Source: a virus | Lineage: Duplodnaviria > Heunggongvirae > Uroviricota > Caudoviricetes | IMG/VR virus record: IMGVR_UViG_2660238462_000004 | Reading direction: 5' to 3' (one strand) | Length of the DNA stretch: 21,318 bases | In this document: in pieces, positions 2,142 through 6,857 of the stretch | Numbering within the stretch: position 1 is the first letter of the stretch | Layout: every line of letters starts with the position of its first letter | Program-made: the position numbers and the translations under genes | Notes under the pieces: generated by a model | What the model saw: the letters and a program-made list of their open reading frames with translations, nothing else | Database searches by the model: none | Told to the model about the DNA's origin: nothing

Positions 2142-3224
2142 TTAGAACTGGTAAACCATACCTACAGCAACGATATCATCGGTAGCAACGCCAGATGCTT
2201 TCGTGAAATCGCTCTTATCAATCAGGTTGATTTTGTAATCAACAAAAGTGGACATATTTTTGTTGAAGTAATAGGTTGCACCTACATCAATATATTCAAC
2301 CAAGTCCTGATCACCCCACGCACCCAAGTCTTTTCCTTTAGATTGCAGGTAAGCAACGGACGGACGCAGACCGAAGTCGAACTGATATTGTGCAACTACT
2401 TCGAAGTTTTGTGCTTTGTTGGCAATATGGTTATTACCAAAAACAGTCATGTTCTGGGTTTCAGAATAGGTGGTAGCCAGATAGATGTTGTTCGCATCAT
2501 ATTTCAGACCAGCTGCCCATACTTCAGCATTTTGACCAGATGCATTCAGGCTGTTGTTACCGTAGATAACCTGATTATTAGTGCGGTCAGATTTAGCATA
2601 GGTTGCACCTACACCGAATCCTTCATACTCATAAGTAGTGGAGAAACCGAAACCATCACCATTAGCTTCAGTTACGTCAGTGCGGTCATTTTTACCCTGA
2701 TACTGAGCAGCAAAGTTCAGACCATCAACCAGACCAAAGAAGTCATTGTTACGATAAGTTGCAACACCTGTGGTGCGACCAGTCATGAATACATCTGTTT
2801 GGGTCCAGGTATCGCCACCGAATTCTGGCAGAACGTCGGTCCATGCACCAATATCGTATGCTACACCGTAGTTACGGCCATAATCGATGGAGCCGTAGTC
2901 ACCGAATTTCAGGCCAGCGAAGGCAAGACGGGTTTTATCTTTGGAGGAACCTTGAGATTCAGCGCGGTTGCCTTTGAATTCATATTCCCACTGACCGAAA
3001 CCAGTCAGTTGATCGTTGATTTGGGTTTCACCTTTGAAGCCAAGACGGGCATAAGTAGTATCACCATCATCTGCATCATTAGAGGAGAAGTAGTGCTTAG
3101 CATTAACTTTCCCGTACAGATCCAGCTTGTTACTGTCTTTATTATAAATTTCAGCTGCCTGAGCAGACATCGCCATCAGTACTGATGCAGCTACAGCAGA
3201 AATTGCCACTGTTAATTTTTTCAT
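2142..3224 (-). CDS. nmpC: Outer-membrane general porin, OmpC/OmpF family (NmpC/OmpD-like prophage porin)
   Basis: 360 aa from ATG at 3222-3224: signal peptide [23 protein letters not shown], then [23 protein letters not shown]..., C-terminal ...VAVGMVYQF (terminal Phe typical of beta-barrel OMPs). The six-frame ORF extends 20 codons further upstream but the signal peptide fixes the start. Confidence 0.9.
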
Positions 3225-3592
3225 CGTGAGCCCTTTTTTTGAACTATTATTAAAAAATGATGTCACTGCGCGATAAATATTCATCTAATCAATGTGATTA
3301 TTTCAAGATGTAAGTTTTGGTTTCTCATTTGATTTGTGAAGTAGATCTCTATTTTTATCTGAACTTTTTCTATCGAATCCTATTCATGGCTCTTGGCTGA
3401 ATAAAAATAAATCTATTAGCCAATTTATATTAATGGCTGTTATTTATAAGTGCTCTATAATTTGAAGATTCAATTTAAACCAGCTAAAAATAACGCTGGA
3501 AATTATTTGTTGGTTATTTGTTGAGATTTGCTTATGTATTTGTAGTGGTGTTTTCAATACTCGGTAGCATTCTCGCAAATATCATTTAGTGG

Positions 3593-3620
3593 TTTACGTA
3601 CGTAAAAAATTGGTTATGCT
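3593..3620 (+). promoter_or_regulatory. Candidate late promoter (pR'-like) upstream of the lysis genes
   Basis: -35-like tttacg (3593-3598), 16-nt spacer, -10-like tatgct (3615-3620), inside a 590-bp AT-rich leader. Loosely resembles the lambda pR' arrangement (shared aaaattgg spacer motif). Inference only. Confidence 0.25.
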
Positions 3621-3653
3621 GTTAAGAGTGGTTACTTCGTCACACAGCTTAAA

Positions 3654-3682
3654 CCCGCCGTCGAGCGGATTTTTCCATTTTT
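3654..3682 (+). terminator. Candidate tR'-like terminator or pause hairpin
   Basis: Short GC stem ccgc/gcgg (3655-3668) with 6-nt loop followed by atttttccatttttt. Stem is only 4 bp, so weak. Confidence 0.3.
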
Positions 3683-3811
3683 TGAGTCTCGATATTAGCT
3701 GATAACCCAATACCTGAGTTATTCACTGACTCCGAGTCTGTTACGTTTCTGCTTTTTTGCGATACGTTGTATTCCCTCAATTTACACCCGCTTTGTCTGC
3801 GAGGTGGGGTT

Positions 3812-4027
3812 ATGAAATCCATGGATAAGTTAACAACGGGTGTCGCCTATGGCACCTCAGCAGGTAGTGCCGGGTACTGGTTTTTACAGTTGCTCGATAA
3901 AGTCACGCCCTCACAGTGGGCGGCAATAGGTGTGCTGGGTAGTCTGGTGTTTGGCCTGCTGACGTATCTGACAAATCTTTATTTCAAGATTAAAGAAGAC
4001 AAGCGTAAGGCTGCACGGGGAGAGTAA
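3812..4027 (+). CDS. essD: Class II holin (phage 21 S21-type pinholin) with dual-start motif
   Basis: 71 aa [71 protein letters not shown]; two predicted TM segments; Met1 and Met4 give the antiholin/holin dual start; SD gaggtgggg at 3801-3809. The track ORF begins at an upstream TTG (3767) that I discount. Confidence 0.85.
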
Positions 4028-4031
4028 TTCA

Positions 4032-4553
4032 ATGACTCAAAACTATGAACTGATTGTGAAAGGGATCCGCAATTTTGAGAATAAAGTTACGGTAACTTTA
4101 GCGTTACGGGACAAAAACCGCTTTGACGGTGAAATTTTTGACCTGGACATCTCGCTGGACCGTGTTGAAGGTGCCGCGCTGGAGTTTTATGAGGCAGCAG
4201 CCAGAAGGAGCATCAGACAGGTCTTCCTGGATGTTGCTGCCGGGTTATGTGAAGGGGATGAGCAGTCGCCGGAAAAGCGCCCCATAATTTTAGAGGCGCA
4301 GAATGTGTGGATAACCTACAAAGGAAAGCTACCGGGAAGAATTACTGGTTCTCTGAAGACGCCACCGACGGCATTGCGGTCAGAAAAAGATGATATTGAA
4401 TCGCCCATTGAAAAACTGGAGGGCAGCGTCGCTGATCTGAATAAAAAATTGTCGGTGCTGATTCCTTCTGAAGATGAAAAAAAACGCCGCGATGAGCAGT
4501 TTGCGGCGTTTTACGATTATTGCATTGAAGTTACTCTCGCAGGAATTTTGTGA
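4032..4553 (+). CDS. Hypothetical protein, N-terminal part YdfR/DUF1327-like, with a C-terminal extension
   Basis: ATG 4 nt after the holin stop; MTQNYELIVKGIRNFENKVTVTLALRDKNRFDGEIFDLDISLDRVEGAALEFYEAAARRSIRQVFL... resembles my recollection of prophage YdfR (about 100 aa), which sits between holin and endolysin in Qin. Here the frame runs to 173 aa with a Lys/Glu-rich tail. Confidence 0.5.
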   Translation: MTQNYELIVKGIRNFENKVTVTLALRDKNRFDGEIFDLDISLDRVEGAALEFYEAAARRSIRQVFLDVAAGLCEGDEQSPEKRPIILEAQNVWITYKGKLPGRITGSLKTPPTALRSEKDDIESPIEKLEGSVADLNKKLSVLIPSEDEKKRRDEQFAAFYDYCIEVTLAGIL

Positions 4554-4793
4554 AGATTTTTGAGGAGGGTAAATCTCTTCAGTAAGCTTAATGGCGGACG
4601 CTGCAATTAATTCAGGAAGGTCCGCAAGGTCATCTGTCAGTGGATATGATGAAAAATCGGCGGCAGTTCTGTTAAGAAGCGCTTTAACTAATTCCTTTTC
4701 CTTCTCCGGCAACAAGTTGATTAGAGCTACGACTGCTTGCCTGAGTGCGATTAAATCAGCAAAAGTTTGTTTAGGTAGATTTGTGTAATCCAT
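4380..4793 (-). CDS. Hypothetical small protein; N-terminal 75 aa look coding, the distal part overlaps antisense to 4032-4553 and may be a shadow or remnant
   Basis: ATG at 4791-4793 with SD gagg 6 nt upstream (minus strand). MDYTNLPKQTFADLIALRQAVVALINLLPEKEKELVKALLNRTAADFSSYPLTDDLADLPELIAASAIKLTEEIYPPQKS... is helical and acidic. No stop until 4380; the last ~58 codons are Phe/Ile-rich, as expected for antisense of a Lys/Glu-rich coding region. Confidence 0.3.
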   Translation of the reverse strand: MDYTNLPKQTFADLIALRQAVVALINLLPEKEKELVKALLNRTAADFSSYPLTDDLADLPELIAASAIKLTEEIYPPQKSSQNSCESNFNAIIVKRRKLLIAAFFFIFRRNQHRQFFIQISDAALQFFNGRFNIIFF

Positions 4794-4906: not shown

Positions 4907-5934
<1,028 letters not shown>

Positions 5935-6117
5935 ATTAATATTAAATCGGATTATTTTTAGCGCTGAATGTGAAATTTAAATAAAAAGGACTCTTCCATG
6001 AGTCAAAATCCTTGAAATCTTAAGGGTAAGATAAAAGGTCATTAGACAGAATGACACGTTTTATTAATAAATAAAGCTATTGTTTCATTCGTGTGTTTTT
6101 CTTTACAAAAGTAATCC

Positions 6118-6146
6118 TTGCTATGGTTGGTTAATCATGCGTTAAT
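6118..6146 (+). promoter_or_regulatory. Candidate cspA-like promoter driving a long 5' UTR
   Basis: ttgcta (6118-6123), 17-nt spacer, gttaat (6141-6146), in an AT-rich upstream region; predicted leader ~145 nt to the csp ATG, comparable to the cspA leader. Confidence 0.35.
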
Positions 6147-6297
6147 GGTGTTCTGGTTTGTTACAAAATTATCTGAAGCAGTCATTGTTATAATTTTATT
6201 ATTTGTACCTCTTGAGATTTCCTTGTTGGTTTTTCTCTCTGATATTTTTTTTCGGACCATTCTGCCCAAGGGCTAACTTCTTCAAAAGGTAATAATG

Positions 6298-6510
6298 ATG
6301 TCTAACAAAATGACTGGTTTAGTGAAATGGTTTAACCCTGAAAAAGGTTTTGGTTTCATCACGCCGAAAGATGGTAGCAAAGATGTGTTTGTCCATTTCT
6401 CAGCTATTCAGAGCAACGATTTCAAAACGTTAACTGAGAATCAGGAAGTCGAATTTGGTATTGAGAACGGACCTAAAGGCCCCGCGGCTGTTCATGTTGT
6501 GGCACTTTGA
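6298..6510 (+). CDS. cspI: Cold-shock protein, CspA family (CspI-like)
   Basis: 70 aa [70 protein letters not shown] with RNP1/RNP2-like motifs (KGFGFI, VFVHF); SD aagg 8 nt upstream. Confidence 0.9.
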
Positions 6511-6709
6511 GGTAGAAAATATTACAAACCATATTCACTTTAGATGCCCGTGTTGCCATGGTTCTCAGTATAGAACATCATCTTTTGATGTTTCTGACAG
6601 GAATCCTTTCGGGGCAAAATGTATCTTTTGTAAATCAATGATGATTACATTTGATAATATTTCACAATACTTAAATGTTAGCCGTCTATCGTTAGATTTA
6701 AGAAAGTGA
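6494..6709 (+). CDS. Small zinc-ribbon protein (YnfQ/YmcF-like) downstream of csp; start codon uncertain
   Basis: Frame encodes ...[57 protein letters not shown] with CxCC...CxxC. The first ATG (6494) lacks an SD and overlaps csp; a GAGG (6509-6512) lies 8 nt upstream of an in-frame ATT (6521), which would give a 62-aa product. Confidence 0.5.
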
Positions 6710-6714
6710 AAATG

Positions 6715-6737
6715 AAGGCTCCTTCGGGAGCTTTTTT
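6715..6737 (+). terminator. Intrinsic terminator after the csp/zinc-ribbon unit
   Basis: aaggctcc-ttcg-ggagc stem with UUCG tetraloop followed by tttttt, 6 nt after the stop at 6709. Confidence 0.6.
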
Positions 6738-6857
6738 GCTTAGTGTCTAGTCGATGGATACTCACATATTACGGTAACATTATGAAAAAAAATAATAGTT
6801 TTTTTTAACTCTGAACCAGCAATGGTAGTGCCAGTGATGACCGGAGTTAACACCATC

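Follow-up and report, generated by a model that had tools for sequence, protein, structure and literature searches.

The cspI transcription unit of a Qin-type Escherichia coli prophage: a cspA-type promoter and a 145-nt thermosensor leader

The window analysed here, that is the whole stretch of 21,318 nt, contains a short gene on the plus strand at positions 6298–6510. This gene is preceded by an RzpQ-like ORF on the same strand (165 aa; DUF2514, Rz-like, from the ORF list and a profile match), the stop codon of which lies at 5934. The spacer between the two genes (5935–6297) is 363 bp long and has a G+C content of 30.3%, versus 49.6% in the window, and only 1.1% of the 363-nt segments of the same window match it in AT-richness. 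The product of the short gene is a protein of 70 aa, assigned from its match to PF00313, its identity with the K-12 protein and the annotation of identical genomes. The PF00313 match covers residues 5–69 (score 108.4 bits, cut-off 27 bits, E = 1.6e-31), which gives the 70-aa protein the single cold-shock domain characteristic of the CspA family. The RNP1 motif (KGFGFI) is present in the translation as KGFGFITP and RNP2 as VFVHF, both motifs as defined in PMC6719143. All 70 residues are identical to those of K-12 CspI, and the nine nucleotide differences between the two coding sequences are synonymous. The 576 bp from 5935 to 6510 match, with 100% identity, DNA annotated as cspI in many complete E. 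coli genomes, among them the B strain REL606 and BL21. Of the 5426 complete genomes compared, 2145 contain a match to the region, nearly always as one chromosomal copy. Orthology to cspI is indicated by protein identity as well as by synteny. The gene at 6298–6510 is cspI, the cold-shock gene of Qin-type lambdoid prophages of E. coli. An earlier, sequence-only reading of this DNA had described a cold-shock gene behind about 360 bp of AT-rich sequence, and both parts of that description are correct.

The genes around cspI are arranged in the order essQ/essD (holin), ydfR, rrrQ (lysozyme), rzpQ, cspI, ynfQ, ynfN, and gnsB, followed by terminase. The same order around cspI is found in Qin-type prophages and also in free phages, mEp460 being one of them. 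The closest relatives of the window have terminase, portal, capsid and tail genes after gnsB. The location of the cold-shock gene inside a prophage, claimed from the sequence alone, is thus evident from its position, with the lysis cassette on one side and the terminase genes on the other. The cspI cassette was found in seven phage records. It is 95–99.9% identical in mEp460, 2H10, HannyBb, Tritos and PhiR63_1, where it lies after the lysis genes and near the right end of the genome. The G+C content of the cassette is 30–41%, compared with the window average given above. The cassette displays the features of a moron: a promoter recognised by homology, a terminator hairpin at 6716–6739, a place between rzpQ and the terminase genes, and occurrence in phages.

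Two further parts of the window can be described here. The interval between the Q antiterminator and holin genes contains an ORF of 380 aa on the minus strand (2142–3284), which matches DNA annotated as the porin OmpC in other prophage regions of E. coli. Because of the match to annotated OmpC, this ORF appears to be another cargo gene, of the nmpC type. The ORF that follows the holin gene (4032–4553, plus strand) encodes 173 aa; the ydfR gene of K-12 has 312 nt, and YdfR-family genes are marked incomplete in REL606 and CUPF06. The relatives differ in a mosaic manner in this part of the lysis cassette, and whole-window matches start only at about position 3793.

The region upstream of cspI was studied in an alignment of five sequences, in which positions −240 to +45 of the present gene were compared with those of K-12 cspI, cspA, cspG and cspB. 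The first part of the spacer past rzpQ (5935–6092, plus strand) is AT-rich and appears weakly constrained; from 5935 to 6117 the G+C content is 27%. The promoter region proper begins with an A/T-rich tract (6093–6117, plus strand) that adjoins the −35 element, where cspA has its UP element. Within this tract, AAAnTAA (6108–6114) is invariant in the five-sequence alignment. A function as UP element is known only for cspA (Mitta et al. 1997, cited in PMC4956666). The tract is followed by the −35 hexamer TTGCTA (6118–6123, plus strand, read directly), of which TTGC is invariant in the five csp upstream regions. The extended −10 element, TGc followed by GTTAAT (6138–6146, plus strand), lies 17 bp past the −35 hexamer, and its TG and TTAAT are likewise invariant. 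The sequence GTTAAT occurs twice in the spacer, at 6130–6135 and at 6141–6146; only the second copy has a usable spacing, of 17 bp, and TG stands two bases upstream of this hexamer. All elements of a cspA-type promoter are therefore present, namely the A/T tract, a TTGCAT-like −35, a TGn-extended, CTTAAT-like −10, and the 17-bp distance. The ttgcta/gttaat pair proposed in the sequence-only reading is confirmed at 6118–6123 and 6141–6146, with its 17-bp spacer and an extended −10 element. Its description as cspA-like is confirmed too, as the −35, TG, −10 and A/T tract are invariant in cspA, cspB, cspG and cspI.

The hexamer pair could also be a chance occurrence in AT-rich DNA, with cspI being only a passenger of the Q-antiterminated late operon, so that induction of the prophage, and not cold, would switch it on. 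The pair fits 8 of 12 consensus positions, which is no better than chance by consensus alone. A generic sigma-70 scan did not list it and reported three sites in the region against 3.9 expected from shuffled sequences. The low consensus fit explains why the scan missed the cspI promoter. Consensus matching can thus neither support nor refute a promoter of the cspA type, and homology was used instead. The invariance of TTGC, TG and TTAAT in comparison with K-12 cspA, cspB and cspG makes the pair credible, and these columns do not vary in the chromosomal genes cspA and cspG, both of which stand outside any late operon. Furthermore, a single difference from the K-12 allele is found in the 60-bp promoter region, as opposed to 18 in the 158 bp of the upstream spacer (5935–6092). 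As for the late operon, cspI is co-oriented with the late genes, and the terminator scan reported no plus-strand terminator between rzpQ and cspI. Fusions of cspI to lacZ were reportedly used by Wang and co-workers in 1999. A gene expressed on prophage induction alone does not fit the cold induction of K-12 cspI, which is recorded in PMC6719143, PMC4956666 and PMC13271884, all of which cite Wang et al. 1999. Chance hexamers in front of a late-operon passenger are accordingly a very improbable account of this region, and the cspA-type promoter is retained.

The start of transcription was placed by homology to cspA, the known +1 of which is 5′ ACGGUUUG. This 5′ ACGGUUUG of cspA corresponds to position 1 of the Rfam cspA model. 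The nucleotide C6153, about 7 nt past the −10 element, aligns with the cspA +1 and lies 145 nt ahead of the ATG at 6298. The 5′ untranslated leader of cspI would thus extend from 6153 to 6297 on the plus strand and measure 145 nt. PMC6719143, citing Wang et al. 1999, gives leader lengths of 145 bases for cspI, 159 for cspA, 160 for cspB and 155 for cspG. The length obtained here by homology equals the published one exactly, in agreement with the 5′ UTR of about 145 nt that had been predicted from the letters of the sequence. Membership of the cspA thermoregulator family RF01766 was found at 6140–6556, with a match that spans model positions 1–428 in full length and scores 109.8 bits (gathering score 78 bits). 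The corresponding K-12 scores are 112.8 bits for cspI, 158.8 for cspB, 159.3 for cspG and 500.8 for cspA. Since its score is above the gathering score and the lowest of the four paralogs, cspI is a bona fide member of RF01766 and at the same time the most divergent one.

One departure from cspA lies in the cold-box region. No plus-strand match with three or fewer mismatches to the cspA cold-box 11-mer TGACGTACAGA was found in the leader between 6153 and 6200, and the cspI leader therefore lacks a recognisable copy of the cold box that characterises RF01766. The Rfam alignment of the cold-box hairpin is poor, with non-canonical pairs, and runs upstream of the inferred start. The sole conserved remnant of the region is GGTTTG (6155–6160, plus strand), which is invariant in the csp alignment. 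In PMC6719143, a cold box and a downstream box are nevertheless listed for the cspI leader with reference to Wang et al. 1999. The columns of leader and coding region that are invariant in all five sequences are GGTTTG, AAGCAG, GCCnAAnGGC and, in codons 5–7, ATGACTGGT.

A consensus structure was calculated with RNAalifold from the 5′ parts of the five csp mRNAs, and it contains two conserved features. The first is a long-range helix that encloses the ribosome-binding site and the start codon. Its 5′ strand (UUAUCUGAAGCAGUC) lies at 6169–6183 and its 3′ strand at 6312–6326, both on the plus strand; the latter covers codons 5–10 and overlaps the downstream box (ATGACTGGT...). In cspI, 12 of the 14 consensus pairs of this helix are retained, and the isolated duplex has a predicted energy of −12.4 kcal/mol. 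In the minimum free energy structure of the whole mRNA at 37 °C, it forms the base of a large stem-loop that contains both the Shine-Dalgarno sequence and the AUG. The predicted helix fits the 37 °C fold reported in PMC13271884. The second feature is the upstream-box hairpin GCC-CAAG-GGC, of the GCCGAAAGGC type, which lies ahead of the Shine-Dalgarno sequence at 6264–6273 on the plus strand. Its three G-C pairs are invariant in five of five sequences; its loop is CAAG in cspI versus GAAA in cspA, cspB and cspG. The 5′ hairpin possible in the cold-box region of cspA, cspB and cspG is replaced in cspI by a weak one made of A/U and G/U pairs only.

The Shine-Dalgarno sequence AAGG was read directly at 6286–6289 on the plus strand; it is separated by 8 nt from the ATG at 6298 and by 5 nt from another ATG at 6295. 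These two in-frame codons form a tandem ATGATG in the present allele, and the extra one results from G6297, where K-12 has T. In the RefSeq annotation, cspI starts at the second ATG (6298). With G6297, which belongs to the common allele, CspI could begin one codon sooner (MMSNK...). It is conceivable, with little probability, that the tandem start retunes the thermometer in the present allele.

Folded alone, the leader is not distinctive in its stability when compared with shuffled sequences (z = −1.48). Equilibrium folding of the whole mRNA with ViennaRNA at 37, 30, 20, 15 and 10 °C, judged by unpaired probabilities, predicted no opening of the Shine-Dalgarno sequence and AUG in the cold, either for cspI or for cspB, cspG and the positive control cspA. 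Because the cspA control fails equally, equilibrium folding carries no weight on the question of a cold switch. The real switch of the csp mRNAs depends on folding during transcription. The K-12 cspI leader was probed with DMS at 37 and 10 °C and alternates between a fold that sequesters the ribosome-binding site and one that leaves it open (PMC13271884). At 10 °C a shorter, register-shifted stem-loop forms within the leader, and the Shine-Dalgarno sequence and the AUG are freed (PMC13271884). From RNA transcribed in vitro, the cspI leader was classed as a protein-independent RNA thermometer (PMC13271884, 2025). The claim that the leader is a structured thermosensor is thus upheld by the RF01766 score above the gathering score and by the DMS probing of K-12 cspI (PMC13271884).

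The leader might instead act mainly through mRNA decay and Csp feedback, without being an RNA thermometer in its own right. It would then be an RNase target at 37 °C that is stabilised in the cold, where later binding of Csp proteins would shut expression down. The cspI mRNA reportedly decays very fast at 37 °C and gains stability on cold shock, as found by Wang and co-workers in 1999, and an autoregulation of Csp proteins through 5′ UTR structure is said to have been described by Zhang and colleagues in Molecular Cell in 2018. In the cold, the cspA mRNA is a target of CspA itself (PMC9947658), and the equilibrium folding, with the reservation that the cspA control behaved likewise, revealed no intrinsic opening of the ribosome-binding site. 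Against decay and feedback as the main mode stands the finding that protein-free RNA, made in vitro at 37 or 10 °C, takes two different folds (PMC13271884). Taken as the main mode, this explanation is possible and rather doubtful. It is compatible with the thermometer and is best seen as an added layer that is real for the family.

A control of cspI by the translation of a hydrophobic leader peptide was considered as well and was rejected for the frame at 6118/6154–6276. One frame of the leader (6154–6276) is open for 41 codons, and the peptide it could encode is hydrophobic. The listed ORF starts at 6118, however, which lies within the −35 hexamer, and past the inferred transcription start the frame has no ATG, GTG or Shine-Dalgarno sequence. 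One of the three leader SNPs relative to K-12 is non-synonymous in this frame, and the leaders of cspA, cspB and cspG have stop codons in all three frames, so that the frame is closed in the paralogs. T-rich sequence is also easily open by chance. We consider a leader peptide very improbable, and the leader is regarded as a regulatory RNA.

The comparison with the K-12 allele agrees with this assignment. The promoter region and leader together differ from K-12 at 4 of 205 positions, one of them in the promoter region and three in the leader. All of the regions used for comparison are more variable: 18 of 158 positions differ in the spacer further upstream (Fisher p = 2e-4), 9 of 71 third codon positions differ in cspI (p = 9e-4), and 12 of 150 positions differ in the 150 bp beyond ynfQ (p = 0.009). 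The whole 576 bp are 94.9% identical to K-12, and most of the differences lie ahead of the promoter, within the spacer. Conservation of the non-coding promoter and leader thus exceeds that of synonymous sites, as expected for a functional regulatory RNA, and this fits selection on the regulatory RNA.

The gene cspI is followed by ynfQ (6521–6709, plus strand), which begins 10 nt past the cspI stop codon. The product is a YmcF-like protein of 62 aa with two CxxC pairs (PF23641, E = 6.3e-33) that differs from K-12 YnfQ in three residues. In RefSeq the start codon of ynfQ is ATT. The gene is very probably co-transcribed with cspI. Under replication stress in K-12, cspI, ynfQ and ynfN are upregulated 6.5-, 5.9- and 5.8-fold, respectively, and their genetic dependencies are the same (PMC11228462). 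Downstream of ynfQ, an intrinsic terminator-like hairpin (AGGCUCC-UUCG-GGAGCUU) followed by a run of six T was read directly at 6716–6739 on the plus strand. The fold of 6705–6745, hairpin included, has an energy of −12.1 kcal/mol; the terminator scan reported the palindrome at 6716–6739 on the minus strand. A remnant of ynfR lies at 6712–6750 (plus strand) and consists of 12 codons followed by TAG, its ORF crossing the hairpin. K-12 has TAT at 6750, and its ynfR encodes a protein of 21 aa. The small protein YnfR is cold-induced (PMC6001520). Since cold-induced YnfR is encoded across the hairpin, and since cspI, ynfQ and ynfN respond together, termination at 6716–6739 is probably partial.

A second hairpin, GACTC-N6-GAGTC at 5989–6004, was considered as a terminator between Rz and cspI and was rejected, because a T run is present only on its minus strand. 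It is terminator-like for transcription toward Rz. In the K-12 allele its stem contains an A-C mismatch, and the hairpin is therefore probably unconstrained.

According to the sequence-only reading, cspI would be expressed independently of the phage late program, and this needs to be qualified. Qin is a defective prophage in K-12. As cspI has its own promoter, and as it is cold-inducible in K-12 even though Qin is defective, its expression in a lysogen should proceed without the late program. On induction of the prophage, Q-antiterminated read-through into cspI is likely, because the gene and the late operon point in the same direction and there is no plus-strand terminator between rzpQ and cspI. 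Late-operon transcription would then be a likely additional input to cspI expression, so that independence holds in the lysogen and probably not on induction. The cassette might serve the phage as well, if CspI made from the Q-antiterminated late transcript aided late expression and lysis in the cold. We offer this as a speculation with little probability; it rests on the nearly unchanged state of the cassette in plaque-forming lambdoid phages and on its co-orientation with the late operon. If it were true, the RNA-chaperone and antitermination activity of CspI would widen the temperature range of productive infection.

We propose, with high confidence, that the region is best explained as the cspI transcription unit, a self-contained moron between the lysis and packaging genes of a Qin-type E. 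coli prophage. Transcription would begin at about C6153 from a cspA-type sigma-70 promoter composed of the A/T tract, TTGCTA, the 17-bp spacer and TGc-GTTAAT. The mRNA would comprise the 145-nt leader, cspI and very probably ynfQ, and some or all of the transcripts would end at the hairpin and T run at 6716–6739. At 37 °C, the leader segment 6169–6183 is predicted to pair with codons 5–10 (6312–6326), whereby a stem-loop would hide the Shine-Dalgarno sequence and AUG, and the mRNA would be short-lived. When the temperature falls to about 15 °C or lower, the nascent RNA would adopt a shorter, register-shifted fold within the leader. The cold fold would free the ribosome-binding site, the mRNA would be stabilised, and the RNA chaperone CspI would accumulate. 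The start site, the cold induction, the mRNA instability at 37 °C and the temperature-dependent refolding are taken from the literature on the K-12 allele. The gene identity, synteny, promoter and leader homology, Rfam membership, long-range helix and conservation were established on the present allele.

Both the observation and the interpretation of the sequence-only reading are supported, and the gene, the promoter and the leader were already known. As a discovery the result carries little weight: the 145-base leader and the cold induction trace back to 1999, the thermometer was reported in 2025, and the location of cspI in Qin is part of the standard K-12 annotation. The small points added here are that cspI is without a recognisable cspA cold box and has kept the upstream-box hairpin and the long-range helix, and that promoter and leader vary less between alleles than the synonymous sites of the gene.

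The closest known system is cspI of K-12 (b1552), which is located in the cryptic prophage Qin. It shares with the present unit the protein, the gene order rrrQ-rzpQ-cspI-ynfQ-ynfN-gnsB, the promoter and the 145-nt leader. The present allele differs by the extra ATG at 6295 and the truncated ynfR, and the present prophage still has the terminase, portal, capsid and tail genes, whereas K-12 Qin is a remnant. With the cspA thermoregulator (RF01766), cspI shares the promoter architecture, a long leader, the GCC/GGC hairpin and the leader-to-coding helix including the downstream box. The leader of cspI is 14 nt shorter, and the present allele scores 109.8 bits on RF01766 compared with 500.8 for cspA. 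In place of the cold-box 11-mer and the G+C-containing 5′ hairpin of cspA, cspI has A/U- and G/U-only sequence. Induction of cspI reportedly occurs only at about 15 °C or lower, and that of cspA from about 30 °C, according to the 1999 work of Wang and co-workers.

The K-12 genes cspG-ymcF-ymcE-gnsA and cspB represent paralogous cold-inducible cassettes, and YmcF, YmcE and GnsA are paralogs of YnfQ, YnfN and GnsB, respectively. The leaders of cspB and cspG also match RF01766 and undergo the same switch between 37 °C and 10 °C (PMC13271884). In sequence, the cspB and cspG leaders are closely alike and that of cspI is divergent, both in the alignment made here and in PMC13271884. The whole four-gene cassette is duplicated in K-12, as cspG-ymcF-ymcE-gnsA (1962–2741 of stretch L004) and as cspI-ynfQ-ynfR-ynfN-gnsB (3610–4668 of stretch L005). 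No recognisable prophage genes were found near K-12 cspG in the 4-kb stretch examined, which suggests that the cspG cassette is an old moron or prophage remnant. Finally, the cspI unit resembles the morons of lambdoid phages, being an autonomous promoter-gene-terminator unit of lower G+C content that lies after the lysis cassette near the right end. The bor gene of lambda occupies the moron position after the lysis cassette. The cspI cassette is distinguished from the lambdoid morons by its co-orientation with the late operon and by a cold-responsive leader in place of simple constitutive expression in the lysogen.
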